DNA of 64,000 bases from Candidatus Forterrea multitransposorum CG_2015-17_Forterrea_25_41 (lineage in GTDB: Archaea; Iainarchaeota; Iainarchaeia; Iainarchaeales; CSSED10-239), in contig CP045477.1 in assembly GCA_009392915.1 (NCBI GenBank), positions 192,001 to 256,000 on the forward strand, given 5' to 3'. Position numbers and translations under genes: made by a program. Below, piece by piece: positions 155 through 51,167 of the stretch. Position 1 is the first letter of the stretch. Each line of letters starts with the position of its first letter. Under the pieces are notes generated by a model. That model searched no databases. It was given only the letters and a program-made list of their open reading frames with translations, and was not told where the DNA came from.

Positions 155-3100
155 TTAATTTTGATATTTATATCTTACAATAACAATTCCAGAACCACCA
201 TTTCCACCATTTGCTGATGAATTTGTTGCTGATCCGTTTCCACCATTTCCTGTGTTTGCAGCAGCAGAAGATGCATCTGAGTGAGCATCACCACCTTTAG
301 CATAAGTGTTTCCCCAAATGGTCATACCAGGACCTCCATTAGGTACTGTTCCAGGTCCTCCCGCTCCTCCTCCTCCACCAGCTCCAACATTAACAACAGA
401 GGTTGCACCAGGATATCCAAATCCTGTATTAGGATACCCATCATTTGTACTTGGTTGTGTTGCACTTCCACCATTTGCAGGCACTGCACTATAAAGGTTT
501 GCACCTCCACCTGAACCACCTGATGTACCATCTCTGGAAGGATTATCTCTTGATCCTCCACCACCACCACCATATGCAATTAAATTTTTAAATACAGAAT
601 TATTTCCATTATTTCCTGTAAAGTCTTGATTTGTAGAACCTGTTCCTCCTGCTCCTACAGTAACAGTAATATTTCCAGTACTTGAAAGTGTGTAGTCTTC
701 AACATATACAAGACCTCCAGCACCTCCTCCTCCAGGATTTCTTAAAGTATTTGTTCCTGCTTTTCCAGCACCTCCACCACCACCAACAACTAAAACATCT
801 ACTTTTCCCTCTCCTAATGTTGTTACATTAAATGTTCCACTTGATGTAAAAGTATGATATTTATAGTCTCCAGAAGTTGTAACTGTTCCTCCTGTTGCTT
901 CTAAATATCCTTGATTTATTGTTAAGTTTATAGATGCTCCTGCTGTTTGATATTGATCATTTACTATTAAAGTTATCTTATGTTCTCCTGATGATAGATT
1001 AGTTGTTGAAAAGTTACAAGTTGAACTTAAAGTTCCATCTATATTTGAATCCCAATAACATGAATGGCTTCCAGATGGATTTGTAATTGTTGAATTAAAA
1101 GTTAGGTTTTCGCCATAATTATGTGTTGATGAGTTTGAGGGAGTATCAATTGTAACTGATATTGGATTAGGTATGCTACGCATAAATATCCAAGATATAC
1201 CTACAATTCCAATTTCTTCAACTCTTAATAAAGGAATTGTACCATCGGGATCAAATGAAGAAATACTGACTGATGTAAAATCTCCACTTGTTCCTGTTAC
1301 AACTGTTGAATTATTAATTATTAAATTTCCTGAATTTGAAGAATAAGATGCAGCAGTAGATCCTAATCCATAATAGACTCTTAATTGGTTTATGTCACTA
1401 GGTCCATTCCATGTATTCATTGTAAGTAATCCATTATCTGCAGGTCCACTATAGAAAAATGATAAAAATTCAGGTCTTCTTGTATAACTTGCAAAATTAA
1501 CATTTACTCCATCATTATAATGTGTATAATAATCTAGATTATAACCATATGTAGATAGATCTGTAGTTAATATACGGTTACCATTCCATGCAGGATAAGA
1601 TGAGTCATAAGTATTATCTGTTGAAAATGAAGAATACAACATCCAACCTCCTCCATTATCTTCCATATTACAATAAATTTGAGTTGGAACTCCGTCTTTT
1701 AATATCCAATAAACTCCGTTTGTAGCACTTGGATTGTTATTTTTAATATACATTGCAGAAGGTGCTGCTTTTTCTGAAGAACTTCCATCTAAATCTATAA
1801 TTGTTATTGAAATATTTTTATCTATAGTTTGTTCTTGATCAGTAACAGATAATGTTATTGTATGTTCTCCAACTGTTAAACTACTTGTTGAAAAATCACA
1901 ATTACTTGATAAACTTCCATCTATAGATGATACCCAAGAACAACTATAACTTCCGTTTTCATTTTCTATTTGAGAATTAAAATCAATTGCTTCTCCAAAA
2001 CTGAATGTTTGTAAGTTTGTAGGAGAATTAATATTTATTGTAAGTTCTTCAACATATTCATTTTTAGTATTATCATAAATTGCTTTAATTTCATTTAAAT
2101 TTAAACTTCTGCCATATAGTCTATAGTCTGAAATCATTCCTTTAAAATATCTTGTATTTGTAGAATTTATTCCAAATTTAACTCCTCCACCTTGTGTTTC
2201 ATAACTATAAATTTCTTCTAATGTTTTTTCTAAGTTTCCATTAATATAACCTTTTAAAGTTTTTAATGTTTCATCATATGTAACTGTATAATTAATCCAT
2301 TTATTTTCTTCAACAGGATCTGAAAGCTCATAAGTTGAATATCCTCCATCTAAATCTCTCCATCTTATTTCCATTTTTTTATCAACAGGATTAATACTAA
2401 CTCTAAGATTATTTTTTTGAGACCAAAAGAAACTTTCATGTTCTAAACTTTGATTTTCTGTATAATATATCCATCCATTTATTGTAAATGAACTATAATC
2501 ACCTACATTTGAAACATTAATATAATCATTAGCTCCATCTAAATTTAATTTAGAACTACTATTCCAATTTGCAGTTCCAACAATACTTCCATTATTAGAA
2601 TTTCCTGAATAATCGTATACTGTGCTTCCTTCTCCTTCATCTATTTTCCAATATCCAATTATTTGATAATCAATACAGTCAAGTACATTATAGTTATTTG
2701 TTTTAATAGGTTTTACAATTTCTCTCCCTTTATCTGTATTTAATTTTAATATATAATTTTCTTCAGGAGCACATACAACATCTATTTCTTTAGTTTCTTT
2801 TTTTTCAATAGTTATTGGTTCTTCAAAAAATATATTTTTATTTAAATATTCTGTATCAACAGCATCTGATGCAATAAAATAACTAGTTAATACTAAATCT
2901 TGATTAATATTGTTGTTTGAAAGTACAATACTTTGATTTACAACTTCTTCAATTAAGATTTCATCTCCAATTCTTTGTATCTCAATTATAGGAATATTAT
3001 TATTTTTATCCACAACACTAAATCTTAATTCTTCAAGTCCAGGCATAATATCAATGTAGTTATAAAAAAGAATATTATTATTATAATCAATATTATAAAG

Positions 3101-3463
3101 TAGACTTGTTTCTTGTCTATTAATTATAAGTGATCCTATTTGGCTTTGTGTTTTTAGATTTTCAATACTTCTTTTATTTTTAATTTCTTGTCTTAAATAA
3201 AGATTACTTGAGTTATTATCAACTGTAATTGGGTCACTTAAATCTAAATAAACTTCTTTATAGCTTCCAACTTCTGAATCTTTTAAATCTGTTAAAATAT
3301 CATTAATATATGCTAAGTTATCTCTGTTGTTTTTCATTCTTTGTGAATCTTCTAGAGTTCCAAAATAATTCATTGCAAAATAAATAAATATACCTAAAAA
3401 TATAATACTTACAAAAAGAATTGCTATTCCTGAAAATAAAGATGTTACTCCTTTTTGATTCAT
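155..3463 (-). CDS. Large secreted/surface adhesin-like protein: class III (pilin-like) signal peptide, LamG/ConA-like domain, PKD-like repeats, fibrinogen-C-like domain, C-terminal glycine-rich domain
   Basis: 1102-aa ORF; N-term MNQKG|VTSLFSGIAILFV resembles archaeal prepilin signal; aa ~265-460 GxxDxSGNxNNGxxxGxxxW...DGxDDYIxV = Laminin_G_3-like; two SCSW/SCYW...GEHTITLSVTDQEQTI PKD-like repeats; aa ~580-610 GVYWILKDGVPTQIYCNMEDNGGGWMLY resembles fibrinogen C-terminal domain hallmark; last ~200 aa GGGGxG-rich ending IVIVRYKYQN. Confidence 0.75.
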   Translation of the reverse strand: MNQKGVTSLFSGIAILFVSIIFLGIFIYFAMNYFGTLEDSQRMKNNRDNLAYINDILTDLKDSEVGSYKEVYLDLSDPITVDNNSSNLYLRQEIKNKRSIENLKTQSQIGSLIINRQETSLLYNIDYNNNILFYNYIDIMPGLEELRFSVVDKNNNIPIIEIQRIGDEILIEEVVNQSIVLSNNNINQDLVLTSYFIASDAVDTEYLNKNIFFEEPITIEKKETKEIDVVCAPEENYILKLNTDKGREIVKPIKTNNYNVLDCIDYQIIGYWKIDEGEGSTVYDYSGNSNNGSIVGTANWNSSSKLNLDGANDYINVSNVGDYSSFTINGWIYYTENQSLEHESFFWSQKNNLRVSINPVDKKMEIRWRDLDGGYSTYELSDPVEENKWINYTVTYDETLKTLKGYINGNLEKTLEEIYSYETQGGGVKFGINSTNTRYFKGMISDYRLYGRSLNLNEIKAIYDNTKNEYVEELTININSPTNLQTFSFGEAIDFNSQIENENGSYSCSWVSSIDGSLSSNCDFSTSSLTVGEHTITLSVTDQEQTIDKNISITIIDLDGSSSEKAAPSAMYIKNNNPSATNGVYWILKDGVPTQIYCNMEDNGGGWMLYSSFSTDNTYDSSYPAWNGNRILTTDLSTYGYNLDYYTHYNDGVNVNFASYTRRPEFLSFFYSGPADNGLLTMNTWNGPSDINQLRVYYGLGSTAASYSSNSGNLIINNSTVVTGTSGDFTSVSISSFDPDGTIPLLRVEEIGIVGISWIFMRSIPNPISVTIDTPSNSSTHNYGENLTFNSTITNPSGSHSCYWDSNIDGTLSSTCNFSTTNLSSGEHKITLIVNDQYQTAGASINLTINQGYLEATGGTVTTSGDYKYHTFTSSGTFNVTTLGEGKVDVLVVGGGGGAGKAGTNTLRNPGGGGAGGLVYVEDYTLSSTGNITVTVGAGGTGSTNQDFTGNNGNNSVFKNLIAYGGGGGGSRDNPSRDGTSGGSGGGANLYSAVPANGGSATQPSTNDGYPNTGFGYPGATSVVNVGAGGGGGAGGPGTVPNGGPGMTIWGNTYAKGGDAHSDASSAAANTGNGGNGSATNSSANGGNGGSGIVIVRYKYQN

Positions 3464-3993
3464 TATTCTTCACTTTTATTAAAATCTAATAATTCTATTT
3501 CTATAATTATTTTATTTTCATCAAGATTATAATCTTGATAACTAAAAACATAATTTGTTTGTCCTTGATTTAAATTAATTAAATTACAATCTATGTTTAT
3601 TTGGGAATTATTGTTTATTGTTTTTTTAAAATAGGCTCTATTTGATTCTTTACTAACTTCAATATCTTTTATTGTAACTAATTGATCATCTCTAATCTCT
3701 GAGTTAAAGATTATTTCTCCTCTGATTTCATTTTGATTACAATCAATCTCTAAGACTTCTGGATTATATATTGTAATTTCTTTTGCTGAAAATCTAGATT
3801 TTGAAATTTCTTGAAAAGTATTTGAAATTAAATCTATGTTTTCAATCATTTGATCAAAATTATATTTTTCTTGATTTTTTTCAATAGTATCTTGCACCAT
3901 ATAAAGTATGCTTGAAAGAATGGCTATACTTACAAATATATATAGAAAGTATGAAAATAAATTTGCTGCTCCTTTTTCTTTTCTTAAAAACAT
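3463..3993 (-). CDS. Small pilin-like protein (class III signal peptide), hypothetical
   Basis: 176-aa ORF, N-term MFLRKEKG|AANLFSYFLYIFVSIAILSSILYMV (basic residues + Gly then long hydrophobic stretch); stop/start overlaps neighbouring genes, same strand as both flanking pilin-signal genes. Confidence 0.55.
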   Translation of the reverse strand: MFLRKEKGAANLFSYFLYIFVSIAILSSILYMVQDTIEKNQEKYNFDQMIENIDLISNTFQEISKSRFSAKEITIYNPEVLEIDCNQNEIRGEIIFNSEIRDDQLVTIKDIEVSKESNRAYFKKTINNNSQINIDCNLINLNQGQTNYVFSYQDYNLDENKIIIEIELLDFNKSEE

Positions 3994-4005
3994 ATTTTAA
4001 AACCT

Positions 4006-6414
4006 TTATTCTATATTTAAATTTAAATTTTCAGTAATAGTTTGTTCTTGATCTGTCACTGATAATGTTATTGTGTGTTCTCCAACAGACAATGTTGAAA
4101 TATTAATATCACAATTATCTAAAGAATATTGATTATTATATAGTTTTGAAACATCTTCTTGATCTATTGCTTCATCAAAAATTAAAATATCATCCATTTT
4201 ACCATTAAAAAAATGATCATAAGTTCCAACAACTCCATTATAAGCTATAGCAGCACCAATTGCAACTGGCAAGCTATTTGATATTGATCCATAAGTTCCA
4301 ATAGGAACACTAGCATCAAGAATTCCATTAATATAAAAATTTAAATCTTGGTTGTCTTTATAAGACATAATAACATTATACCAATTATTTTGAGCATATA
4401 GAGAACCACAATTACTACAACTTTTATAGTTACTTTGAGCATCATCAATACCAGAATAAATATCCCAATTACTAGAAACATTATTAATCATTAATTGCCA
4501 ACCTGCATAACTTCCTCCGGCACCTCTTCCTCTAGTATTAATTATTCTTTGATATCCAGAACCAGTAGGATTTATCCATGTTGATACAGTAATTTCATCT
4601 AAATTTGAACTAATATTATTATCTAAAGTTGCATAGCTTGAAGTTCCATTAAAACTTAATGCATTATTTTCTCTTCCAAATCTGTCTGTTGTTCTAGTTA
4701 CATTAAATAAAGTTCCGTCAATATTCCCTATATTATCATAAATAGTATCTCCTGTAGTTTCTTCAAATCTATATTCTGCATATGGTTTTTGATATGTTAA
4801 ATTTCCATCAATTGATGATGCCCAAGAACAAGAATAATTTCCTACATTATTTGTAATATTTGTATCTATTTCTATATTATCTCCTAAAGTATATACATTT
4901 GAATCAATATTTATTTCTGCATTTAAAGATGGATTTTCTACAGTTATATTTTTTGTTTCAGTAATAGTTTGTTCTTGATCGGTCACTGATAAAGTTATGG
5001 TGTGTTCTCCAACAGACAATGTTGAAATATTAATATCACAATTATTTGAAGAATATTGATTATTATATAGTTTTGAAACATCAGAACTAGAAATTCCATT
5101 ATTAAAAATAATAATATCATCTAACTTTCCATTAAAAAAATGATTAAAAGTTCCATACACTCCATTATATGCAACTGATGTCCCAATTGCTGTTGGTAAG
5201 CTGTTTGTTATATTTCCATATGGATCTAAATTTACACTTTCATCTAATTGTCCATCAACATAAAAATTAAGATTATTATCTTCATCAAAAGACATAACAA
5301 AATGATACCATTTTCCAAGTGTCAAACTATTTCCACAAGTGTTACAACCAGTAAATGGACTTGTTGAAGAATCAACTCCTGAATAAAGATAAAAATTACT
5401 AGTTGTATCATTAATTAATATTTGCCATCCTTCAACATCTGAAGCTGCAGATCCTCTTGTGTTTATAATTCTCTGATATGTACTAGATCCATTTGATAAA
5501 AACCATCCTGATATTGCAAATCTATTAAGTTCTTGACTTATATTATTATCTAATAAAACATAGCTTGAAGTTCCATTAAAGCTTAAAGCCTTATTTTCTC
5601 TTCCAAATCTATCTGTAGTTCTTGTAATGTTATATCCATTACCATCAATATTACCTATTAAATCATAAATTATATTTCCTGAAGTTTCATTAAAATCCCA
5701 TCTTGCATAAGGTGTTTTACTTGGTATTAAGTTTCCATCAATTGATGATGCCCAAGAACAAGAATAACTTCCAACAGGGTTATTTACTTCTGATGTGAAA
5801 TTAATTGGTTCTGAAAATAAGAAAGAAGTTGCTTCTATTGGATTTGAAATATCTATAGTTGTCACAGTTTCTATTGGATTTAGATTTGGTCTTTCTTTTT
5901 GAAGATTTAATTTTTCAGAAGAATCAATTTCTCTTAAAAAACTTATTTTGTTTCTACTTATTTTTTTAATATAAATAATTGTTTTTGTGTTATTAAGATA
6001 TATTCCTTGTTCTATATCTATTCCATTGATGTCTAAACCAACAATTAATTTTTCAAATTCTCTAAAAGTATAAATTTCTCCTTCTCTAATTAATTGTCCT
6101 TCTTTATAATAATTTCCAGAAATATTATGAAATATTTCTATTTTATCTAAATTAGAATCTGCTTCAAAACTTAAACCATCAAGGTCTATTACAAAAGAGA
6201 CAACAGATCCATTTGAATTTTCTAAAACTTCTTGTATTTTTCCTTGAATTTCTTCAATATACATTCTAGATTCTTCAAATTTTTGTTGTGAATTATTTCT
6301 TTCAATTGCAGGAACAACTCCTTGATAAATAAGTCCTACAACAGCAACAATAATAAATATAACTAAGATATAACTTAAAATTTCAGAAGCTCCTCTCTGA
6401 TTTAGTCTTTTCAT
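4006..6414 (-). CDS. Secreted surface protein with class III signal peptide and two tandem LamG/ConA-like + PKD-like repeat units
   Basis: 802-aa ORF; N-term MKRLNQRG|ASEILSYILVIFIIVAVVGLIY; two ~290-aa internal repeat units (aa 196-487 and 505-797) each with SYSCSWASSIDGNL, RWDFNETSGN / YRFEETTGD LamG signature, and terminal GEHTITLSVTDQEQTIT; repeat units also nearly identical at DNA level. Confidence 0.75.
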   Translation of the reverse strand: MKRLNQRGASEILSYILVIFIIVAVVGLIYQGVVPAIERNNSQQKFEESRMYIEEIQGKIQEVLENSNGSVVSFVIDLDGLSFEADSNLDKIEIFHNISGNYYKEGQLIREGEIYTFREFEKLIVGLDINGIDIEQGIYLNNTKTIIYIKKISRNKISFLREIDSSEKLNLQKERPNLNPIETVTTIDISNPIEATSFLFSEPINFTSEVNNPVGSYSCSWASSIDGNLIPSKTPYARWDFNETSGNIIYDLIGNIDGNGYNITRTTDRFGRENKALSFNGTSSYVLLDNNISQELNRFAISGWFLSNGSSTYQRIINTRGSAASDVEGWQILINDTTSNFYLYSGVDSSTSPFTGCNTCGNSLTLGKWYHFVMSFDEDNNLNFYVDGQLDESVNLDPYGNITNSLPTAIGTSVAYNGVYGTFNHFFNGKLDDIIIFNNGISSSDVSKLYNNQYSSNNCDINISTLSVGEHTITLSVTDQEQTITETKNITVENPSLNAEINIDSNVYTLGDNIEIDTNITNNVGNYSCSWASSIDGNLTYQKPYAEYRFEETTGDTIYDNIGNIDGTLFNVTRTTDRFGRENNALSFNGTSSYATLDNNISSNLDEITVSTWINPTGSGYQRIINTRGRGAGGSYAGWQLMINNVSSNWDIYSGIDDAQSNYKSCSNCGSLYAQNNWYNVIMSYKDNQDLNFYINGILDASVPIGTYGSISNSLPVAIGAAIAYNGVVGTYDHFFNGKMDDILIFDEAIDQEDVSKLYNNQYSLDNCDINISTLSVGEHTITLSVTDQEQTITENLNLNIE

Positions 6415-18972: not shown

Positions 18973-20421
18973 TTGTGTTTTATTATGATTTTCAAACAAT
19001 CAAAGAATCAAATTAAAAGAGATTTCTCTTTTTCTGTAAAAGATGGGATTTTTTGGGTACTAATGAATTCTATAGCTATAATTTTTTTAGTTCCATATTT
19101 AGTTTCTTTAGGTGCAAATTCTTTTCAAATAGGTCTTTTAAATTCATTTCCTTTATTTATAACTTCTTTTTTAGTTTTAATATCTTATAAACTTTTAAAA
19201 ATATTTAAATCTAAAAAACATGCAGTTGTAATTTTTTTAACATTACAAGCTTTAATGTGGATTCCTCTTGCAATGGCTTATTTCTTTTTTCCAAATTCAA
19301 TTACTATTTGGATTATAATTTTAATTTATACAATAATAACTGCTTTAGGAACAATTATTCATCCAATTTACATGGACTGGATAAGAAAACTTTTTCCAAC
19401 AAAACAAATGGGTTCTTATATTGCAAAAAAAAATATAATTTTAGAGTTTGTTTCAATTTTTCCAATTTTTTTAATAGGTTATATTTTAGATGTTATTTTC
19501 AAATCAAATACTTTTATTGGTTATTCAATAATTTTTGTATTTGCAGGAATATTTAGATATTTTTCAACAAGATTTTTAAATAAAATGAGTGAAACAGAAG
19601 ATAAAGAAGCTATTTTAAAACTTGTAAAAGAAAAAGAAAAAATTCCTCTTTTAAAATCTTTTAAAGATGAAGTTATAAAAGATAAGTCTTTTTTAAAGTT
19701 TTTAATTTTTATCATTCTATCATATATTGGTATTCACTTAGCAACTTCTTATGTTTCTTATTTTGTTTTAAACTTTTTAAATTATTCTTCTACTCAATAT
19801 GTTCTATGGAAAATTTCTTTTATTTTAGGAACTGTTTTAAGTTTAAGTTATTGGGGTTATATTTCAGATAAATATAGTCCTGTAAAAGTTTTACAAATAA
19901 GTACTTTATTTATGCCTTTATTTTTAATAATTCCTGCATTCTTTTATTCTAGTTATTCTTTAATGATTTTTTCAATTTTTGTTGGAGGTGTTATTTTTGG
20001 TGCTTTTAATTTAGGGGTTTTAGATTATCTTTTTAAAAATATAAAAAGAGATTTAATAGGTCATAGTTCTTATTTTTTAATAATACAAGCAAGTTCAATT
20101 TTTATTGGAACTCTTCTAGGTTCTGGAATAATTTATTTAGCAACAAAATTTTATTCTTCAGAATTCAAGGCTTTAATATTTTTATTTGTATTTACAATAT
20201 TTTTTAGATACATAGCATTTTTCTATTCTTTAAAGCTTAAAAAATTAGAAAGAAGAGATCTTAGATTTTTTAAATATGTTATTTTTCAAAGACCTGTTCT
20301 TTATGGTTTACTTCAATTTACTCATCTTTCACATGAAGAAAAAAAATTACTACTTGATTTAAAATTAAAATCTGAATTTAAAAAAATTAAATCAAAATTA
20401 TTTAATCAGAAAAAACAGTAG
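18973..20421 (+). CDS. MFS-type transporter
   Basis: 482-aa ORF with ~12 TM helices in two halves separated by a charged loop (NKMSETEDKEAILKLVKEKEK). Confidence 0.5.
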   Translation: MCFIMIFKQSKNQIKRDFSFSVKDGIFWVLMNSIAIIFLVPYLVSLGANSFQIGLLNSFPLFITSFLVLISYKLLKIFKSKKHAVVIFLTLQALMWIPLAMAYFFFPNSITIWIIILIYTIITALGTIIHPIYMDWIRKLFPTKQMGSYIAKKNIILEFVSIFPIFLIGYILDVIFKSNTFIGYSIIFVFAGIFRYFSTRFLNKMSETEDKEAILKLVKEKEKIPLLKSFKDEVIKDKSFLKFLIFIILSYIGIHLATSYVSYFVLNFLNYSSTQYVLWKISFILGTVLSLSYWGYISDKYSPVKVLQISTLFMPLFLIIPAFFYSSYSLMIFSIFVGGVIFGAFNLGVLDYLFKNIKRDLIGHSSYFLIIQASSIFIGTLLGSGIIYLATKFYSSEFKALIFLFVFTIFFRYIAFFYSLKLKKLERRDLRFFKYVIFQRPVLYGLLQFTHLSHEEKKLLLDLKLKSEFKKIKSKLFNQKKQ

Positions 20422-22924
20422 CTGTTTTTCCTCCATCCCATGTAATTCTTGGTCTTATTTTTAGAAGCATTACTTTTTCGGAGTTATCATCAATCATTAT
20501 TGCATATCCTTGTTCTTTTGGCATTTGTGCATAATATTTATCCATAGGTATATTTAGATAACTAGGTCTAATTGATGAAACTGCTTGAATATCTTCTTGT
20601 GCTGTCATTCTCATACTTAAGAAAAGATCACATTGAGAGATTGTTTCAGAATGTAGTTTATTTGGTCTTTGGGTTGCAAGGATTAATGAAAGTCCTGGTT
20701 GCCTTCCAACTCTTATCCATTGCAATAAAACATCTAAAGCCATACTAGGTCTGTCTTGAGGCATAAACATGTGTGCTTCATCTATTACCATCCAGACAAT
20801 AGGCATTTCACTTGTTTTTCTTTTTCCTTCAAGAAGATTTTTTTCTTCTTCTTTTCTATAAAGCATTCTTTCTTCATATAGTCTTTTTCCTAAAAGTCCA
20901 ACTATAAGTTCTTGAACTGATTCCATTCCAATTGCTTGTTTATATGTTGAAACATCAATTGTTGTAATTGTTCCTGGCTTTGCAAATTCTTTCATAGTTG
21001 TTCCTGATTTTGAAAAAAGACCCCATGATTTTGCAATTTTCATTCTATTTATTAAAGAGTCTTTAATTTCTTTTGTTGTTTCTGAATCTGTTAAAGCTAC
21101 TTTAATAATATCATCAATATCATAAAGATTTCCAAGTTTTTGTTTTAAAATATCAATACTTCTTGACAGAAGTCCAGATTCTGGATCTCTCCAAGTTAGT
21201 CTAAAAAGACCAAGCCAGTCTTCTAAATCTACTTGTGAAGATCTTATTGAAAAAGGTGAATCAAAAGGTATTTCTTTTTCTTTATAAAAATCTTGTTTTC
21301 CTGCAGGAATCATATTTCTAATACCAATACCATCTGCCTTTAAATCCCATTTATCTAATAGTTCTTTAGGTACTTCTTTATTTGGATAGTTCATGGTCCA
21401 AAAAATACCTACAGTGTCAATAACAATTACAGAAAGTCTATCTTTAACATCAAAAGGTTGTCTTGCAAATTCTTCCATAACAACAGATAGAGTATAACTG
21501 TTGTGTATTATTATATTATTTGCAATAAAATTATGGTTTTTTAAAACTGTTATGTCATAAACTTCAAATTTTCCTTTTAAATGATTAATTTCTTTAATCT
21601 CATCCCAATAGATATCTGATGTTGCTATTTTTTCAAGTTCTTTATTATTTTCTTTTTTTGCAATAATTAATAATTTTTCTCTTGAAGGTGCATAATTTAT
21701 TGATGATCTAATTGCTTTTGGTGTTTTATAATTAAATTCTACACCAATATTTTTCCATCCGTTTAAAGGTTTAAAATTATTCCAAATTTCTTTAGGAATT
21801 GTATCAATATTTGGATTTTTAATTTTATTTTTATATTTTAATGTTTTTTTTTCTTTTTCTCCAATAAATCCAATTTCTTTAATATATTTTTCTACATCTT
21901 GTTCTAATATTTCAAGTTCATAACTATCTCTTTTTTTAGTTTTCTTTTTTCTAATTTTTGAAAGTATTTCTAGTTTTAATAAGATTCCTTGAATCTGTAG
22001 TATCATTTTTTTAGAAGAAGATGAGTAACTTATTCTACATCTTTTTTCTTTTTCAAAATAAATTGTTCCATCACAACTAAACATTCTATTTAAAAATAAA
22101 GCAAGGTTTTCTTTTTTTTGTTTAAATATAATTTCTGGAATTTCTTTTTGATATGATAATTTATTATACATTCCAATTTGTTTAATATATTCTTTTAAAC
22201 TTCCTTTCTGGTATGGATTTTCTTTTCCTTTTTTCCATATAACTTTGTAATTATATTTTCCTATTTCTTTTAAGTCTAGTTCTTTATCAAATAATTTTAT
22301 TGAAGATCTAAAATCATTTACAATTTTGTCATCACCATTACAAAAAAGTACAACTCTATTTGAAAGATGCCCTTCTGCAAGAAGATATGCAATTAATTTA
22401 ATATTTTCTTTTTTTAATTTATCTTTACCTATATTATTTAATTTTCTAGGTGTTGCAATTCTTGACTTTACTTTAAGATCTTTTGCTTCTTTCCAACCTT
22501 CTAAAGTAAGTAATGGATGTTCTAAAGTTAATTTTATTTCTTTTCCACTTCTAAGTTTAATTTCTAAAAGTTCATTTACTTTTCTTTTAAAAAAGTTTTC
22601 TTTTTTAGCTTTTTCTATTTTTAAATTATCATTAATAGACATTACTTTAAGATTTGTATTTTCTAAATCTTTTATTTCAATTTCTCTTCCATCTTCTAAA
22701 GCTATTAAAGTGTCTCCAGTTACACATTTTCCGCCGCCCCTTTTTCCGCAGATAATCATTACATGTGATCTTGAAAGATCCATTAATACTTTTTTACCTA
22801 AAACAGGGTCATCTCCTCCAGAGACAACTACTTTTCCTAAATATCCAGTTGCTTTTTCTTTGTATTTATCAAGATCGCTTTGTTTTCTTCCAACTACAAT
22901 ATTATCTGTAAAATCTAAACTCAT
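20402..22924 (-). CDS. HerA/FtsK-superfamily ATPase (DUF87/AAA-like) interrupted by an intein in the P-loop
   Basis: 840-aa ORF; Walker A HVMIICGKRGGGK|C...IIIHN|SYT split by a 409-aa insertion beginning Cys and ending His-Asn followed by Ser; Walker B VWMVIDEAHMF; C-terminal ILATQRPNKLHSETISQCDLFLSMRM motif of HerA/FtsK ATPases. Confidence 0.8.
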   Translation of the reverse strand: MSLDFTDNIVVGRKQSDLDKYKEKATGYLGKVVVSGGDDPVLGKKVLMDLSRSHVMIICGKRGGGKCVTGDTLIALEDGREIEIKDLENTNLKVMSINDNLKIEKAKKENFFKRKVNELLEIKLRSGKEIKLTLEHPLLTLEGWKEAKDLKVKSRIATPRKLNNIGKDKLKKENIKLIAYLLAEGHLSNRVVLFCNGDDKIVNDFRSSIKLFDKELDLKEIGKYNYKVIWKKGKENPYQKGSLKEYIKQIGMYNKLSYQKEIPEIIFKQKKENLALFLNRMFSCDGTIYFEKEKRCRISYSSSSKKMILQIQGILLKLEILSKIRKKKTKKRDSYELEILEQDVEKYIKEIGFIGEKEKKTLKYKNKIKNPNIDTIPKEIWNNFKPLNGWKNIGVEFNYKTPKAIRSSINYAPSREKLLIIAKKENNKELEKIATSDIYWDEIKEINHLKGKFEVYDITVLKNHNFIANNIIIHNSYTLSVVMEEFARQPFDVKDRLSVIVIDTVGIFWTMNYPNKEVPKELLDKWDLKADGIGIRNMIPAGKQDFYKEKEIPFDSPFSIRSSQVDLEDWLGLFRLTWRDPESGLLSRSIDILKQKLGNLYDIDDIIKVALTDSETTKEIKDSLINRMKIAKSWGLFSKSGTTMKEFAKPGTITTIDVSTYKQAIGMESVQELIVGLLGKRLYEERMLYRKEEEKNLLEGKRKTSEMPIVWMVIDEAHMFMPQDRPSMALDVLLQWIRVGRQPGLSLILATQRPNKLHSETISQCDLFLSMRMTAQEDIQAVSSIRPSYLNIPMDKYYAQMPKEQGYAIMIDDNSEKVMLLKIRPRITWDGGKTATVFSD
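21500..22726 (-). mobile_element. Intein (Hint domain + LAGLIDADG homing endonuclease) inserted in Walker A of the ATPase
   Basis: Extein/intein junctions GGGK|CVTGDTLIALEDG and NNIIIHN|SYTLS; internal IAYLLAEGHLSNR and LALFLNRMFSCDGTIYF resemble the two LAGLIDADG blocks. Confidence 0.75.
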
Positions 22925-23601
22925 ATTTTTTCTTTTTTATATTTTTTTAAAAATTCTTTAATTGTTTTTATTGTTATATATCCTGATGCTAATATAATTA
23001 ATATAAATATTATAACTATTAGTACATATGCAATTGATCTTAAATTTATAAAGAAAATAAATAATATTTTAATTAAGTGTGTTTGTATAATTGCTCCTAC
23101 CATTATTGAAATTAAAGCTATGTAAAATAATTTAATATCTTGTTTTGTAAAGAAAATAGCTCTTATCTTATATTTATCTTCTTTAATGATTAAATTATTT
23201 AAAAATATTTTTACAATTAATAATAATGTTTTTATTCCAAGTGTTGAAAATATAATGTATGATATAAAAAATAAAAATTGAGGTATTAATTGAACTAATA
23301 ATTTTACTTGACCTAAAAATGAAGATGTTAATAGTTCAACATGAATATATGCATATTGTATACCTATTGTTAAATAAGCAAATGGTGTGAAAAAAAGATC
23401 TAATGAATTATTAAATATTTCATAAATTGTTTGTTTGAAATAAATTGCACTTGTAAGAGATAAATTTTGTATAAAGTTTGATCCTTCTGTAATTAGGATG
23501 TCTCCTCTTGAGGCATAGATAAAAGCAATTATAATTCCAATAATATATGAAATTCCAAAAGTTGAAGCAATTACTCTATAATAGTTATCTATCTTTACCA
23601 T
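22921..23601 (-). CDS. Polytopic membrane protein translationally coupled to the downstream ATPase
   Basis: 226-aa ORF, about 6 TM helices; its stop overlaps the ATG of the ATPase gene (ATGA overlap at 22921-22924). Confidence 0.5.
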   Translation of the reverse strand: MVKIDNYYRVIASTFGISYIIGIIIAFIYASRGDILITEGSNFIQNLSLTSAIYFKQTIYEIFNNSLDLFFTPFAYLTIGIQYAYIHVELLTSSFLGQVKLLVQLIPQFLFFISYIIFSTLGIKTLLLIVKIFLNNLIIKEDKYKIRAIFFTKQDIKLFYIALISIMVGAIIQTHLIKILFIFFINLRSIAYVLIVIIFILIILASGYITIKTIKEFLKKYKKEKI

Positions 23602-24205: not shown

Positions 24206-24490
24206 CTATTCTTGTTTAATTTCAGTTTTCTTCATTCTTTTTGGTATTACAAAATAACTTTTAGCTTTACAAACTGAACATTCAGCTGTATAAACTGGTT
24301 TTTTATTTTGTTTTTTAACAGGTTTGATTAATTTTGCTTTTCCACCATAACCTGACTTATGTTTAGCTTCATTTTTTCTAGTACCAATAGACATAGCTCT
24401 TGCTTTTCTAGGTTTGAATGCTTTTAATTTTTGTTCTGTATGTTTTTTACATTTTTTACAATATCCTTTTACTGTTTTTGGAAGGTTCAT
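24206..24490 (-). CDS. rpl44e: Ribosomal protein L44e (L36a-like zinc-ribbon protein)
   Basis: 94-aa ORF, CKKCKKH...GYGGK...CSVCKAK four-Cys zinc ribbon and length typical of archaeal/eukaryotic L44e. Confidence 0.8.
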   Translation of the reverse strand: MNLPKTVKGYCKKCKKHTEQKLKAFKPRKARAMSIGTRKNEAKHKSGYGGKAKLIKPVKKQNKKPVYTAECSVCKAKSYFVIPKRMKKTEIKQE

Positions 24491-39852: not shown

Positions 39853-40317
39853 ATGACACAAAATGACAATATCACAAAACAGATATTTTTAGAAAAGTTA
39901 TTAAAACAAGATACCAAAGAGCTGGGTTTGAATGATCTTATTCAGATCCAAGAGAAGTTTAACGATCCGTTGATACTTTCTGTAATATTACATCAACTTT
40001 TAGAAGAAAGAAAAAGAACAAACGAGATATTAAAAGATCTTTATGAAAAGTATGACTCTTTACAATTTTCTATTAAGAATAGTAAAGAATCTAGTAATTT
40101 AAATCAAGATCAAGATACAATTAATATCTTACCAGAAATAGATGATAAGATAATTTCTTTTATAAGAGCAAATCAAAAAGTTGATGCAGAACAAGTACAG
40201 GAAGCATTTAATTATAAAGGATCAAATGCAGCTTCTCAAAGACTTAATAGACTAGTAAAAGAAGGATACTTACGAAAAGTTCAAGCAGGAAGAAAGGTAT
40301 ACTTTATTGTAAAATGA
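39853..40317 (+). CDS. Winged-helix transcriptional regulator (MarR/TrmB-like C-terminal wHTH)
   Basis: 154-aa ORF; C-term QVQEAFNYKGSNAASQRLNRLVKEGYLRKVQAGRKVYFIVK. Confidence 0.45.
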   Translation: MTQNDNITKQIFLEKLLKQDTKELGLNDLIQIQEKFNDPLILSVILHQLLEERKRTNEILKDLYEKYDSLQFSIKNSKESSNLNQDQDTINILPEIDDKIISFIRANQKVDAEQVQEAFNYKGSNAASQRLNRLVKEGYLRKVQAGRKVYFIVK

Positions 40318-41362: not shown

Positions 41363-44300
41363 ATGGTTAAAGATAAAAATAATTTAGGCTCAAATGAAAA
41401 CAATGAAAATAAACAAAATATTTTTTCAAGATTTTATAATTATCTTGAAGATAAATATTCTTCTTTATCAAACTGGCTTACAGAAAAAGGAATACCATTA
41501 AATAATTTAAATAATTATTTAGAGGAAAAAGGACTTCCTGCTTTTGCAATAGTTGCATCTATTTTATTATTATTAATCTTTATAATTGTTTTCTTAATTA
41601 TCTTTTCTTTTTCCAGTCAATCAACATTAATTTTTTCTGTTAAAGATTATTCTGGACTTTCAATCAATGATGCTTTTTTAAAAATTACAAATAGTTCAGG
41701 TAAGGAAATCTTTTCAGGAACTGTAAATGATACTGATGTTAAAAAATTAAAATTAAAATTAGGAGAATTATATTCTTTTAAATCAACTAAAGATGGATAT
41801 CCTGATTTTTCAAAATCAATAACTATTACTGATAAAGATCAAAAAGTACAAATTACTTTTTCAGAATCAATTGAGTATGGTATATTAAGAATAAAATTAA
41901 TAGATAGAGATAATAAAGGAATAATTACTTCAGGAACTGCGATCGCAAGATATTCAATTAATAATGCTCCTGAGTCTACAGAAAACATTGTAAATATTGC
42001 AAATGAACATTTTATTACTTTAGAAGTTCCAATGAATAAAGATATTGAACTTTTAGTTAGTGCAGATGGTTATGAAGATTTTAAAGAAACAAATTTTAGA
42101 ATAACTTTAGAAAATCAAGAAAAAGTAATTGAAATGGATATTTCTTCTTTATCTTTTGAAGGTAAAAGTCAAGTTACTTTTGTTGTTTTAGATACAGAAC
42201 AAAATCCAATTGATGGTGCTTTAGTAAGCATATATAATCTTGGAGATGAATTATTAGATTCAAAAAATACAATTGATGGAAGAGCTTTATCTTTTATTGA
42301 TAGTGGTTCTACAATATCTTATAAAGTTGAAAAAGAAGGTTATAGAACATTTGTAAGTGATCCTGAAGTTTCTTTTAGAATTACAAAATCTGAAATAACT
42401 TATAATGTTACTTTAGAAGAGGGTGGAAATTTTTTAGATGTGTTTGTAAAATCTGGTTCTAATTTTTTAGCTCTTGGAGATGTTGCAATTACTGTTTATG
42501 ATTTAAATAATAATATTATTAATTCTGGAAATACAGATGATTTAGGAAATTTAAAATTAACTGGTCTTTCTGATAAAGCACCAATTGTTGTAACTGCTTG
42601 TAAAGAAGATTTCCTTTGTGAAAATTTAACAGTAGATCTTTTAGAAAAAAGTTCAGTTGAGTTTACTTTAGAAAGAATAGATGTAACAAATAGTGCTATT
42701 CTGTCTGTTTTTGTTGTTGATGAAAAAAATTTACCGATCTCAAAAGCTTTTATAAAAATCTATCAATTACTTGAAGATGATAAAGAAGTTCCATACAACA
42801 CATCTCTTCAAACTGATCTTACAGGTTCTCTTTCAATACCTCTAAGAGTTGGAGATTCTTTTATAGTTTATTCATTAGTTGGAGAAGTTCAATATTTTGA
42901 AGAAATTACAATTGATGCTTTAAGAGAAAATAAAATAATTTTTGTAATGGATAATGCTTCTAAAATAATTAAATTAGATCTTTATGATGAAAATGGTTTT
43001 AAACTTACTTCAGGTTCTTTACTTGTAAAAACAAAAGATGGAACTGTTCTTTTTGATGGTAATTTATCTGAAACTGATCAAATAAGTTTTATTTCAGAAG
43101 GCTATAAAGATTTATATGCTGAATACACAGATGTTAATGGTAATAAATCTTCAATTAATTTTAATGCTGATGAATCTGAGTCAGATGGATATATAAGACT
43201 TGATTTTAATAAAGAAGTTAATTTAACAGATTATCCTGTAATTGAGTTTTCAGGAATTGTAGATTCTAAAGGAGTTAAATCAAATTTTGTAACAATAGGT
43301 AAAGAATATTATTTAATTTTTGATGTTTTATTCCCAGAAAATACTTATAAAGGACAAGTACATATTAGAGCTGGTGATGATACTCAAGTTGATGTTGAAG
43401 AAATGAGTTATGGTATAACTGGTTTTTCTGCAATGGATATTTATGATTTTAAATATGGTACAACATATAATAGTTCTCCTCTTCCAGGTTTAATGAATAT
43501 TGATCTTTTAAATGAAGGTTCTTCTCAAGTTTTAAATAAATGGCTTGAACTTAAATGGAATAGTGATCTTCCTTTAGGTAATAAACAAATCAAAGTAAAA
43601 ATAAATGTTATAGATGATTCTTATTCAAAATTAACTTTTAAATATAGAACTTTATTTGAAGAAAATAAATTATACTATAGAGATCCAGTTGACTCTTTAT
43701 TAAACCAAAGTTATTCTTCATCTCAAAAAGGTGCTTTATATGCAGATACAAAAGAAGTAAATATTGATGTTTATAATGTTCCTTTAGATTGTGAAGGTTC
43801 TCAATGTTTGTCATATACTTTTATTGATTCAAAAGGAAATGAATTTTCAAAAAATGATTTCTATGCTGTAAGAGATGAAACTTATTTTTTAAAAGTTAGT
43901 CTTTATTCTTTAGATAATAAACAATTAGATCTTTTAGCAGAAACTTCAAAAAGTTTCCCTTTAATTTCATTTGGTTCTTTTTCAGATAATCTTTATCAAA
44001 ATGAAATAATAAATGATAATTCTTTATTTGAAATTTCAAGAGATGGTTTTTTACTTTCTGAAAATTCTTTAAAAAATATTTATCTTTCATTTATCTCAAA
44101 AGATATTGGTGCTGCATATATTGATCTTAAAGCAACAGATGTTATTTTAGGAAATGAAATTTTAAACAATAGATTAAGTTTTAATGTTTATGATAAAAAA
44201 GAAATGAATGTTTTAGTTTCTCCAAGTAATTATGTTGATTATGGATCAAATTTTACTGTTGATGTTTTAGATTCAGTTTCTCTTGAACCTATTACAGATG

Positions 44301-47300
44301 CTTTTATTTCTTTTTATGATGTTAGAGATACTTTTATTTCTTCTTTAAAACCAAGTAATTCAAATGGAAGGAATGGAAAATATACTATTACAAATAATTT
44401 TAATACTTCAACTGTTAAAATGGTAGTTGAAAGATATGGTTATCTTCCTTATGAAACTGAAATTTATATTATTGATAATACTTTATTAAATGCAATTCCT
44501 TCAGAAATAATTTTTAATTTAGGTCTTGACCAAACAGCATCAACTTCAAATTTTAGTTTAGAAAACTTAGGTAATTATCAAGCAACAAATGTAAGGTTTG
44601 GAGAACCTATTTGGATTGAAGGTAGTGCTGGTATTTATCTTGAAGGAAGAGGTAATCCAATAATTAATAAAAACTCAACTCAAAATTATCAATTGTTACT
44701 TACAACAGAAAATGATGTTGAACTTAAAACAGCATATGCACATCTTCCAGTATATGCATCTGTAGGTCCTAGAGAAGTTACAAAAATATTAAATGTTAGA
44801 ATAAATAAAGGTTTAATGTTAAATGAATGTGTTGAAATTACTCCTTCTGAAGTTTCTTCTTTTGTTGGACTAAATGTTTCTTCAAATTATGCAGATCCTT
44901 TTAATACTCCTTTTGCAGATTATGATTATACTTCAAATACTTCAAATAATCCTATGCTTGCACCTTCTCAAAGTTATTCTAATTATGAAGAATATTTAAA
45001 TTCAAGTGGATATAACATTACTGATTCAACAGATAATGGTTATACTTACACAGATTCTAAAAATTATACTTATCATGCAACTTCTCCTGCTCTTAATTCT
45101 CAAATTACTGAAAACACAACTTATTTTACAATTAAAAATAATTGTTCTCAAGCTATAACTTTTAATCCTCAAGCAGTTTTAACTTCTTCATCATCAAATA
45201 ATAATTTAGAAGTTTCTCTTGCAAACATAACTGTTCTTCCAGGAGAAGAAAAAGTTTATGATGTTATTTTAAAAAATTCATCTGAACTTAAAAGAAAAAC
45301 AACATATACCTATAATGTTTTATGGCATAATAATTATTATTCAATAGCTCCTTCAGTTTTAAATGTTGATCTTTTAGATTTAAGTAGAGCTTTATGGGTT
45401 ATGCCACAACAAATAAATATTCCAATCTCTCAAGTACATCCTCAACAAGCTGCTGAAAATTATACTAGATTTTTTATTAAAAATATAGGTGCTGTTCCAA
45501 TAACTGATATACAAATAAGTCAGTATCCAAAAATGGTGTCTTCTAATATTAAAATAACTGAATATCCAAGACAAGTATCTGTTTTAGAACCAGGAAAAAC
45601 AATTCCTGTTGATTTAAAATTTTCAGTAAATATTAATAAATCTACATTAGATAATGCCTTTATACAAGTAACTGGTAAAGCTGTTGGTATTAGTGAACCA
45701 ATTACTTCAACAACACAATTAGTGTTTTCAATTTCTTCTCCAAATTGCTTAAAAGTAAGTAATAAAAATATTAATTTTGATTTAGAAGTTGGGGAAACAA
45801 GAGCAAGAAATATTACAATTACAAATCAATGTTCTGAACCTGTTACAATAGTTGGAATTGATAAAAAACAACAAGGATATTATCAAGCATATGGGGATAA
45901 TTCTTTTAGAATAACTCCTGCTTCTGGTAATCCAATAATTCCTGTTAACATGTCAAATTCTTATAGAATAGAGTTTACTGCAAATTCTTTAGGTGGTTCT
46001 CCAAAAACACCAATGATACTTCAAGGTAGATTAATGAATTCAGGTAATCCTGTAACTTCAGAAGAGGTTTTAGTTTCAATAACTATAGATGATATAATGG
46101 TTGGAGAAGAAGCTGAAAGAAATATTTCTATTTTATCTTCTCTTCCTTCTTGTGAAGATCCACAAAATATTAATTCATATAATAGACCATTAATTTCAAT
46201 TAAAGATTGTTCTGAAACTTCAGGATATTGTGATGGAGAATCTTCAGCTGAATTAATTTTAAAAAAAGTAAATGAACTTCAAAATGAAATTAAACAATTT
46301 TCTGCACAAACACAATCAAAAGTAATTGATACTGGTTGTACTCTTCAAGATGCATATAGTGGTTTTTGTAAAATATCTGAACTTGGTGGAGGAATTGATC
46401 CTGTTGAGTTTTCTTTCTTTATGCAAAATGATAATGTTACACCTGATTTAATTAAATCTATTTTAACAAAATCAAATTATTCTTTTAAAAATTATTTTGT
46501 TGAAACAAATATTTTTAATAAAGAAATTAAAACTATAAATCAATATTCTTCTTATGGGGTATATGCTGGTGGAAATAAAATATTTGTATCTCCTCACCTA
46601 TCAGGTTGTGGAAAATATACAGTAGAGATTGATGGTTATGTTGCTGCAAGTCCAGATTATATTTATCCTGAAAGAGCATATTATTATATTAATGTTGTAG
46701 AAAAAGATACTAACACTATTCATTGTGAGAAAAATATTGTAAATTATTTAAATTATCTTCCATGGGATCTTTCTTTTAATAAAAACCAAAGAGCAGGAAC
46801 TTGGCTTACTTTATTTACTGGTGATGAAAATTTATCAAAAGCTTTAATTAAAAGTGTGGGTAAGTTTAAGTCAGATGAAATTGATTTAAGATATGTTTAT
46901 AATAAAGATGTTTTATCTACAAGAAATAGTACTTTAAATGTTTCAACTGGAGAGATTTCTGAAAATAAAGAAGCTCTTGCAAAAATTTCTTTTAATGATA
47001 CTTCTTTAAGAAAAAGCTCTTCTCCAGAACAAATAGATATTACTTTAAATTCTCTTTATAATTCTCCTGAAGGTAAAACTTCTGAGTATGCTGTTAAAGA
47101 TTTTTCAAAAGTAATTTCTTCAATGATTTCAGATAATGATTATTCTGCAAAAGTTTGTATTTCTGAAGATAAAACATATATGCTTGTTTTAGATGTTATT
47201 TCAGCAGGAGATTTAACTTTTGTTGATAAAGAAGTAAGTCTTCCTTTAAAGGATGGAGCTTCATGTTCTTTATTAAAAGTTAAATCATCAGTTCCTGAAA

Positions 47301-49487: not shown

Positions 49488-51167
49488 ATGTTAAGAAATA
49501 AAAAAGGATTTAATTTATTTACTGCTTTAATCTCATTGATGCTTTTATCAATAACTCTAGTTTTTATTTTTAATATGGTTCAAACTGAAGAAAATTATTT
49601 AGAATTAATAAATAATCAATCTCAAGCTTCTGACCTCTTAACAATTGCAGATATTTCAAGAGCTGATGCTTTTAATAATTTTGTTGTTTCTTTTAGAGAA
49701 CAATGGATGTCTTTTAGAAGTGATCCTCGTTCTGAAATCATACTTAAAAGAAAAGATATTATGCTTGATTGGGATGGTTTTGTAGATTATTTTGCAGATT
49801 ATATTTTCTTTGATAATAGTTTTGAAAATTATTTTGCAGATAATATGGTTAGATCTTTAAATTATACAAATCCACCAACAGGTTATGCAATAAATGTTCC
49901 TAATTATTCTCGTGATGATTTATCTAGTATTATTAAAACAGCTTTTCTTGAAGCTGGAGATGATAAAATAAAAGTTGTAAGTTGTGAAAGAGAAGATGAG
50001 GTTTGTTTAGGTACACTTTATTTTACAATTGATACTAGAAAACTTTCTGCACAAGAATATGAAAAACTTCCAATGATAACTGTTAAAAGAAATGTTGATG
50101 ATGAAGTTATTCAAAGACCAGTTTTTGCAAAAAGAGCATACAGGATATATATTCCCTGGAGAGGTTTTCAAGCTTTAAGGACTGTTAGAAATTTTGCACT
50201 TGATGCTGATCTTGAAAAAGGAGAAACAACAGCTCAAATTATTGAATATTCAAAAGATTCAAGAGGTTTTTTAAACCCCTATATTCATTATACTCTCAAT
50301 AGTGCAAAACTTGGTGTTTGTGATATTGATAGTTGTGCTCTAAGAAAAGATTTATTTAAAACTGTTGAGTTTAATGGGTTTACTGGAGATGCATGTTCTA
50401 ATCCGCCTGGAGTTAGTAATGTTTCTGACAATGGAGGAATTACTGGATCTTTTACTGGAGAAGTTTCTCTTTCTAATAATCATAGTTACAATATTCAAGA
50501 TATAGATGGAACTGTAAAACCTATATATAATGATTTAGTTAAAACAACTATAGAAAACAATTTAGAATATAGAACTGATATAATACATGCAGGAAATAAT
50601 TTGCCATCAATCTCTTCTTCTTCAATTTTAGATGATGAATGTCAAATGTCTTTAACAACTGGAAATTTTTCAATATGTGATATACGTGTAAGACTTCCTT
50701 CTCCAAAAGTTACAAAAGAAGTTATTTCTGTAGGAACTGTTTCAGAATCTTTAAGTAGTTTATCTCAAGTTTCATTCAATCCTTCTGGTAGTTTTAATAA
50801 AGCTTCAAACTTAAGTCTCTCTATTGATGATGATTTAAATATTAATGTTTTTGATCAAGAAAGTACTATTCCTAATGAAACTGATAATCAATATCTATCA
50901 TGTACAACAATTGACTATATTGATTTATTATTTAAATTTGAAGAACAAGATGAAAAGTATATTTTTTCTCAAGATTCTAAAAATATTTATATTTTAATTC
51001 AAGATAGATTTTCAGATTATACTTTCTTTAATTCATTTGGAAGCGTTCCTAACTTTAGTGGAGGATATTTTCAAAAAAGAGAACTTCCTTCATTTACAGG
51101 AGGACAAGGTTGGACTTGTAAAAGTTATGAAGCAAATGAAGATGATGCAGCATGTGTTGCAGGTTAA
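49488..51167 (+). CDS. Pilin-like secreted protein (class III signal peptide), 559 aa
   Basis: N-term MLRNKKG|FNLFTALISLMLLSITLVFIFNMV; remainder hydrophilic with scattered Cys pairs. Confidence 0.6.
   Translation: MLRNKKGFNLFTALISLMLLSITLVFIFNMVQTEENYLELINNQSQASDLLTIADISRADAFNNFVVSFREQWMSFRSDPRSEIILKRKDIMLDWDGFVDYFADYIFFDNSFENYFADNMVRSLNYTNPPTGYAINVPNYSRDDLSSIIKTAFLEAGDDKIKVVSCEREDEVCLGTLYFTIDTRKLSAQEYEKLPMITVKRNVDDEVIQRPVFAKRAYRIYIPWRGFQALRTVRNFALDADLEKGETTAQIIEYSKDSRGFLNPYIHYTLNSAKLGVCDIDSCALRKDLFKTVEFNGFTGDACSNPPGVSNVSDNGGITGSFTGEVSLSNNHSYNIQDIDGTVKPIYNDLVKTTIENNLEYRTDIIHAGNNLPSISSSSILDDECQMSLTTGNFSICDIRVRLPSPKVTKEVISVGTVSESLSSLSQVSFNPSGSFNKASNLSLSIDDDLNINVFDQESTIPNETDNQYLSCTTIDYIDLLFKFEEQDEKYIFSQDSKNIYILIQDRFSDYTFFNSFGSVPNFSGGYFQKRELPSFTGGQGWTCKSYEANEDDAACVAG

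Follow-up and report, generated by a model that had tools for sequence, protein, structure and literature searches.

Does a small membrane protein whose gene overlaps that of a HerA/FtsK-type ATPase form with it a device that carries DNA through the cell membrane, or has the overlap some other meaning? The question is raised by a gene pair in a 64,000-nucleotide (nt) stretch of the genome of the archaeon Candidatus Forterrea multitransposorum (Iainarchaeota; contig CP045477.1, positions 192,001 to 256,000), which we refer to throughout as the window. A first-pass annotation of the window, made from the sequence alone, described a membrane protein open reading frame (ORF) of 226 amino acids (aa) that is joined to an intein-bearing ATPase ORF by a 4-nt ATGA overlap, an arrangement that we confirmed in the sequence, and it proposed that the two genes encode a membrane translocation module for DNA or protein. 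The part of this proposal that stands is a tight and conserved gene pair whose motor belongs to the HerA superfamily and has no HAS domain; the translocation link itself is not upheld, beyond gene order, by the analyses below. What is new here is a subfamily of the HerA clade that has no HAS-barrel and that, in a single sub-clade, is paired with an orphan membrane protein. The explanation that we tentatively favor, at a probability of roughly 45%, is a cytoplasmic HerA-like motor with a young, co-transcribed membrane accessory that tethers or regulates the ATPase.

The spliced ATPase belongs to the HerA clade and has no HAS domain

The ATPase gene encodes a precursor in which the intein splits the Walker A loop (GKRGGGK/C...HN/SYT, where the slashes mark the two junctions); since the P-loop is interrupted in this way, the intein must splice before the ATPase can work. 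All the hallmarks of a class 1 intein are present, namely Cys1, a block B TxxH, a C-terminal HN, a nucleophilic +1 residue, which here is Ser, and a precise in-frame insertion. Blocks A and B read CVTGDTLI and LTLEHPLL, the C-terminus reads IIIHN, and Pfam recognizes both Intein_splicing (5e-31) and LAGLIDADG_3 (1e-14) in this part of the precursor. Excision of the intein leaves an extein of exactly 431 aa, the same length as many intein-free orthologs.

The spliced protein matches Pfam DUF87, the HerA central domain, with 36 bits against a cut-off of 23.2, and it scores under the cut-off with FtsK_SpoIIIE. The HerA models of NCBIfam give partial matches that are far below threshold (42.7 against a cut-off of 970 for helicase_HerA, 32 against 800 for HerA_Thermprot and 55 against 850 for HerA_antiphage_2). 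The scores with VirB4 models are likewise far under their cut-offs, and neither CedB nor CedD, both of which are represented in NCBIfam, matches the spliced protein at E<=1. When a profile of the ATPase family is compared with PDB sequences it matches HerA/DUF87 chains only, and the spliced sequence is nearest to HerA. The DUF87 score and the PDB matches agree with the earlier assignment to the FtsK/HerA superfamily, and the VIDEAH and ILATQRP motifs on which that assignment drew are present, as VWMVIDEAH and LILATQRPNK.

We modeled the structure with AlphaFold2 on an intein-free ortholog, P0001, that is 94% identical to the window extein (predicted local distance difference test score, pLDDT, 85.4). 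The RecA-like ATPase core with the helical insertion of the DUF87/HerA central domain is present in the window protein (the insertion occupies residues ~158-238 of the model), and the fold is nearer to HerA than to VirB4. Ahead of the P-loop strand and the core that follows it, the model has only a beta-hairpin at residues 26-49 (strands 26-35 and 41-49), which leaves no HAS-barrel. Walker A lies from residue 60 onward, and this position together with the model bears out the very short N-terminus that the first-pass annotation had remarked upon. We conclude that the window protein is a HerA-clade ATPase that lacks the HAS domain, rather than an ATPase of the VirB4/CedB type. It is not a canonical HerA either. 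The HerA of the HerA-NurA pair, represented by the S. solfataricus protein (PDB 4d2i), is only ~14% identical in sequence to the window ATPase and is ~500 aa long with a HAS-barrel, as compared with 431 aa and no barrel. The RecA-like core and the helical insertion are common to the two proteins, whereas the window ATPase departs from canonical HerA in its missing HAS-barrel, in the absence of an association with NurA and in its scores with the NCBIfam equivalog models (43-55 bits, where the cut-offs lie at 850-970).

The HerA models of PADLOC match only residues ~240 to 400 of the ATPase, and no defence HerA is matched over its full length. The sole match that is nearly full length is to mad8, from a methylation-associated defence system (48.8 bits, P0001 residues 41-373 against positions 15-262 of the 314 in the profile), and it hints that other small HAS-less relatives exist.

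Distribution and conservation of the ATPase family

A protein search found 1828 relatives of the ATPase, and the best 120 of these 1828 are all at least 53% identical and almost all 429-436 aa long. Species-representative genomes, when scanned, yielded 173 confirmed ATPase loci, the best 80 of which are used in the locus comparisons below; the loci are labelled, nearly without exception, Iainarchaeum, ainarchaeum or unclassified archaeon. Mean column identity in the family alignment is 72%, and Walker A and B, the TQR motif, a long helix that carries RMLYRKEEE and the C-tail PRxxWDGG are invariant. A neighbour-joining tree was built on the exteins after excision of the inteins. It has a monophyletic clade A of 20 tips, the window among them, at 71-99% identity, and a clade B of 62 tips at 53-61% identity, which also consists of Iainarchaeota loci. 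Within clade A the median identity to the window is 75.7% for the ATPase, compared with 71.4% for the ribosomal protein L44e that is encoded nearby, and by this measure the ATPase is about as conserved in the clade as L44e. The family is almost absent from viral contigs. In its conservation and distribution the ATPase gene has the profile of a core housekeeping gene.

Of the 20 clade A ATPases, 14, including the one in the window, have an intein at the same P-loop site, and six are intein-free. Thirteen of these inteins are 406-426 aa long, and the remaining one, in locus L016, is a 200-aa mini-intein. The basal locus of the clade, L019, is also intein-bearing. This pattern points to repeated loss or homing within the clade. 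Four contigs with other labels (L027, Micrarchaeota; L055, Falkowbacteria; L076, Chloroflexi; L082, Thaumarchaeota) carry typical clade B ATPases that nest among those of Iainarchaeota in the tree, and these contigs are probably mis-binned or mis-labelled. We also considered, and rejected, transmembrane (TM) segments fused to the N-termini of clade B ATPases, as the calls proved to be core beta-strands or over-extended ORF starts.

A homolog lies outside this group on plasmid NZ_CP098519.1 of Haloplanus sp. HW8-1 (locus L094, 5841-8149). The protein, WP_251331428.1, is a HAS-less ATPase of 389 aa that is 33% identical to the window ATPase over ~390 residues and agrees with it in domain layout and motifs, and its gene, like that of the window ATPase, has a 4-nt overlap with the gene of a 5' partner. 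The partner differs, being a soluble protein of 380 aa with faint similarity to PglZ, and so do the surroundings, which consist of plasmid genes for a BREX-like ATPase, a GNAT protein, a QueF-like protein and a PD-(D/E)XK nuclease/helicase pair and look like a defence island. Since the Haloplanus homolog pairs with a soluble protein that is faintly similar to PglZ, the partners of HAS-less HerA-like ATPases differ from one setting to another within the family.

The membrane protein is an orphan

Hydropathy analysis of the membrane protein gives four robust TM segments (residues 9-31, ~99-134, 157-183 and 190-212) and two amphipathic helices (51-71 and 75-92), for a total of four to six. The earlier count of about six was right in that the protein is polytopic, and as a number it is approximate. 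The positive-inside rule suggests that both termini are cytoplasmic. An invariant motif, H87-x2-LLTSSFLGQ-x-K100, runs through the family. The AlphaFold2 model of the protein has a pLDDT of 83.6, and the single C-terminal helix of 73 residues that it contains is unlikely to be literally correct.

No Pfam family matches the membrane protein at E<=1, which also disposes of the SpoIIM/DUF95 identity that had been raised as an alternative, and no NCBIfam family matches it. No PDB fold is matched, and there is no VirB6 chain among the matches listed; a sequence profile run against PDB, and comparisons with plasmids, PHROGs and PADLOC, gave nothing meaningful. A relation to CedA, TedA or VirB6 is not recognizable in Pfam, NCBIfam or PDB folds, where CedA profiles are not among the models. 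A word-indexed profile search collected 53 clusters of homologs, 198-257 aa long and at least 36% identical, with no tail of weaker matches, and an exhaustive search through 1.84 billion representatives with a HMMER profile returned six matches, every one of them a family member or a fragment of one. By these searches the protein is an orphan family that is confined to one sub-clade of the Iainarchaeota. The ORF is nevertheless a real gene under purifying selection, since the ratio of nonsynonymous to synonymous substitution (dN/dS) is 0.09-0.27 in five of the six close pairs for which it can be estimated; in the sixth, the window and L013, it is 0.63, a rough value with dS near 1. The 53 homologous clusters and the invariant motifs also support a real gene.

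The two genes have been paired once and have stayed together

The pairing is conserved across genomes. In 17 of the 19 clade A loci the membrane gene lies directly 5' of the ATPase gene, at a spacing of -11 to +15 nt, and reverse look-ups that began with membrane proteins 40%, 48% and 98% identical to that of the window found the order L44e, membrane protein, ATPase with a 4-nt overlap in three of three cases. Of the other two clade A loci, L017 is cut by the end of its contig, and L019, the basal branch of the clade, truly lacks the membrane gene, and there a small Cys-rich ORF separates L44e from the ATPase. In clade B (62 tips) the membrane gene is missing from every locus. In all, the membrane gene is found in ~23 contexts, always beside the ATPase gene and never more than 15 nt from it, while its sequence has diverged to ~37% identity. 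The pairing thus arose once, in a single monophyletic sub-clade.

The closeness of the two genes is not simply that of a compact genome. Among the 26 co-directional pairs of neighbouring genes in the window only four (15%) are 15 nt or less apart, and two overlap, so the coupling of the membrane gene with the ATPase gene exceeds the genomic default. The two are very likely co-transcribed and are probably coupled in translation as well. The idea that a different, non-homologous membrane gene takes the same place 5' of the clade B ATPases was rejected, since such genes are sporadic (L027 and L056 only) and form no pattern.

Surroundings of the locus

The coordinates of the locus are collected in Table 1. 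The window has a G+C content of ~25% and an archaeal gene content. Around the ATPase locus lie a convergent gene for an MFS transporter, an orphan ORF of 146 aa, the L44e gene and an XPD-type helicase gene; NurA is not among these neighbours, in agreement with the earlier description. The 3' ends of the transporter and ATPase genes overlap by 20 nt, and the overlap is identical in L007, L009 and L013. The 146-aa ORF occupies ~600 nt of extra sequence between the L44e and membrane genes and is found only in the species-level lineage of the window (at 3472-3912 in the near-identical relatives L092 and L093); the gap of ~600 nt 5' of the membrane gene has no Rfam or tRNA match. L092 and L093 also have a Fic-domain gene between XPD and L44e, which the window lacks. 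The small region around the L44e and membrane genes seems to tolerate insertions such as the 146-aa ORF and the Fic gene.

Table 1. Positions of the gene pair, its parts and its closest neighbours in the window.
Feature	Position	Strand	Basis or remark
Membrane protein gene, 226 aa	22921-23601	minus	ORF list, family alignment
ATGA overlap, 4 nt (TGA stop of membrane gene, ATG start of ATPase gene)	22921-22924	minus	sequence
HerA-clade ATPase precursor with intein, 840 aa	20402-22924	minus	ORF and Pfam
N-extein, residues 1-66 (N-terminal beta-hairpin region and start of Walker A)	22727-22924	minus	
First part of Walker A, GKRGGGK	22727-22747	minus	
Intein, 409 aa, precursor residues 67-475	21500-22726	minus	Pfam, motifs
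LAGLIDADG domain of the intein	21869-22105	minus	Pfam match
C-extein, 365 aa (remaining RecA-like core with helical insertion)	20405-21499	minus	
Walker B, VWMVIDEAH	20771-20797	minus	
LILATQRPNK, putative arginine-finger motif	20657-20686	minus	
Conserved C-tail, RPRITWDGG	20429-20455	minus	
Ribosomal protein L44e gene	24206-24490	minus	5' neighbour of membrane gene
Orphan ORF, 146 aa	23721-24161	plus	between L44e and membrane gene
MFS transporter gene	18973-20421	plus	convergent to ATPase gene

In clade B the commonest 5' neighbour of the ATPase gene encodes a ~160-aa protein that combines a coiled coil with a winged helix at its C-terminus (for example L032, 5333-5812). It is a near neighbour in 24 loci, in 23 of which it lies 5' of the ATPase gene and on its strand. 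A hidden Markov model of this family matches 47 loci, a number that takes in the window and re-fetched duplicates; 19-21 of 25 members have weak winged-helix matches in Pfam, and the protein belongs to no known family. The window has its copy 17 kb away from the ATPase gene, at 39853-40317 on the plus strand. A second recurrent neighbour, a coiled-coil protein of ~230 aa, is encoded convergently and directly 3' of the ATPase in 22 loci of both clades, nine of them in clade A (examples are L010, 4271-4957, and L022, 7106-7798). It is absent from the 64-kb window, which has the MFS transporter in its place. Another coiled-coil family, of ~160 aa, lies divergently 5' of the ATPase in 21 clade B loci, and neither coiled-coil family has a match in Pfam or PDB. 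A ~770-aa protein with 13 TM segments also recurs beside clade B ATPases. Neither NurA nor Mre11 nor Rad50 was recognized among the annotated or scanned conserved neighbours of the 80 loci, where no direct search for NurA was made; the scanned families that recur beside the ATPase comprise proteins with coiled coils or winged helices, thioredoxin-like proteins and membrane proteins, and none is nuclease-like.

Farther away in the window, three consecutive large genes at 155-6414 (minus strand) and one gene at 49488-51167 (plus strand) encode proteins that start with a few basic residues and continue into a hydrophobic helix, for example MKRLNQRGASEILSYILVIFIIV. This may be a pilin-type signal, and the products could be surface proteins resembling type IV pilins. 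Three giant plus-strand ORFs, at 41363-49378, 51298-58269 and 58297-63900, take up the final third of the window and encode proteins of 2671, 2323 and 1867 aa with one to three predicted TM segments each.

What the pair may do

Members of the HerA/FtsK superfamily form hexameric rings that translocate DNA by means of Walker A and B motifs and an arginine that acts in trans. If the window ATPase follows this pattern, splicing of the intein out of the P-loop would yield a functional 431-aa enzyme, which the superfamily and the conserved motifs lead us to expect would assemble into a hexamer. The ring would use ATP to move along DNA or to remodel it in the cytoplasm, as HerA does, and this task would be ancestral across the phylum and independent of any partner. 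The membrane gene would then have entered the space between rpl44e and the ATPase gene a single time, in one sub-clade, and would have evolved fast and been co-transcribed with the ATPase gene since. Its product may keep some of the ATPase molecules at the membrane or regulate them there, presumably through physical contact. We regard such a tethering or regulatory role as slightly likelier than the absence of any functional link.

A number of points weigh against this explanation. We infer DNA as the substrate of the ATPase from the HerA clade only; relatives of HerA in defence systems serve as scaffolds or regulators, and the 33%-identical Haloplanus homolog is found in a BREX/PglZ-like context. 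The motif H87..LLTSSFLGQ.K100 of the membrane protein is predicted to lie at the outer face of the membrane, and the cytoplasmic loops should be short. L44e is the syntenic 5' neighbour of the membrane gene throughout clade A, and the adjacency of the membrane and ATPase genes may be conserved by simple inheritance, since the unrelated L44e gene is kept in the same block. Finally, the 15 substitutions that are specific to clade A ATPases are all conservative, and there is no sign that the ATPase has adapted to its partner, because 11 of the 15 are also present in L019, which has no partner.

Several of these observations would be expected if the two proteins were unrelated neighbours, and the membrane protein had a role of its own, as a small channel, a transporter or an envelope protein, and had merely landed in the rpl44e-ATPase block of a compact genome, with which it would be transcribed. 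The synteny of the whole block, unrelated L44e included, would then be unremarkable, as would an ATPase that did not change when the partner was gained, orthologous ATPases that do without a partner in clade B and in L019, a best-conserved motif on the predicted outer face, and an intergenic zone that accepts other insertions. Such an accident of location fits less well with a membrane gene that was never found away from the ATPase gene, or with a spacing that never exceeds 15 nt, is often an overlap of 4 nt and has been held through the divergence of the protein, in a genome whose gene pairs, as sampled in the window, are mostly spaced more widely. We consider it a substantial possibility, with odds of about one to two, and prefer a membrane accessory of the cytoplasmic motor.

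The remaining explanations would all give the pair a more specific function. One is that docking of the HerA-like hexamer by the orphan membrane protein makes a two-gene DNA pump of independent origin, whose function would be analogous to that of FtsK/SpoIIIE, which clear the chromosome at division, or to that of Ced, which takes up DNA. This seems unlikely to us; the channel or anchor of such a pump would be unrelated to any known one, and its ATPase would otherwise be cytoplasmic and essential.

A split analogue of FtsK/SpoIIIE, in which the membrane protein would anchor the hexamer at the membrane or the division site and let it pump the chromosome, for instance out of the septum, is more doubtful still. 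The domain layout of FtsK includes a winged-helix gamma domain. Like FtsK and SpoIIIE, the window ATPase belongs to the FtsK-HerA superfamily of ring motors, with conserved Walker A and B and a TQRP-type motif, and its conservation equals that of a ribosomal protein. The winged-helix and coiled-coil protein encoded 5' of the ATPase in sister lineages recalls the gamma domain, so that a membrane part, a motor and this neighbour together mimic the three modules of FtsK. Unlike FtsK, the window ATPase has neither a fused N-terminal TM domain nor a C-terminal winged-helix gamma domain, and the proposed anchor is confined to one sub-clade. The HerA-domain protein HVO_1301 localizes to midcell in Haloferax (bioRxiv 10.64898/2026.07.16.738847), which would favor a division-site role if it is orthologous to the window ATPase family.

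The resemblance to DNA import or conjugation systems that the first-pass annotation had seen found no support. The Ced and Ted systems import DNA with a channel (CedA or TedA), an ATPase (CedB or TedB) and a pilin (CedA1 or TedC). In the Ced system a polytopic membrane protein, CedA, works with CedB, an ATPase of the HerA/VirB4 superfamily (PMC9905601), and the window locus likewise encodes a polytopic membrane protein beside an ATPase of that superfamily. A Ced/Ted-like or type IV secretion system (T4SS)-like device for DNA import or export, with the membrane protein as its channel and the ATPase as its CedB/VirB4-type motor, might also be of benefit to a DPANN host. The ATPase, in contrast, matches no CedB or CedD model, fails membership of VirB4 with scores far below cut-off, and has a fold closer to HerA; it is a phylum-wide core gene of the housekeeping type, usually without a membrane partner, as in clade B and L019, and is hardly ever found on viral contigs. 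The membrane protein, for its part, resembles no known family or solved fold, with no VirB6 chain listed and no homolog on plasmids, and is most likely not a channel of the CedA/VirB6 type. The operon also lacks a CedA1/VirB2-like two-TM pilin, as the interval from L44e to the ATPase has just two ORFs of at least 25 aa, namely the membrane gene and the soluble 146-aa ORF. We found nothing specific in the literature on DUF87/HerA proteins with membrane partners in DPANN archaea, and we judge a device of this kind to be very improbable.

Least credible of all is an anti-virus defence pair of a HerA-like sensor or scaffold and a membrane-disrupting effector: many defence systems do combine HerA with an effector, PADLOC HerA models match the C-terminal half of the ATPase, mad8 gives 48.8 bits, and the Haloplanus homolog has BREX-like, PglZ-like and nuclease/helicase genes around it, but the PADLOC matches to the ATPase are partial, the membrane protein has none that is meaningful, and the window ATPase gene, unlike HerA anti-phage systems and defence genes, which are patchily distributed and move fast, sits in a conserved chromosomal block beside rpl44e and is near-universal in its phylum with the conservation of a ribosomal protein.

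Implications

Our analysis removes the Ced/T4SS annotation from this locus and defines in its place two uncharacterized families, each with a clearly bounded phyletic range. The missing FtsK-like motor of the reduced DPANN archaea, or another of their core DNA motors, may be this HAS-less HerA-like ATPase. If its role as a motor is real, then the membrane partner that a single sub-clade has gained would be a natural experiment in the recruitment of a DNA motor to the membrane.

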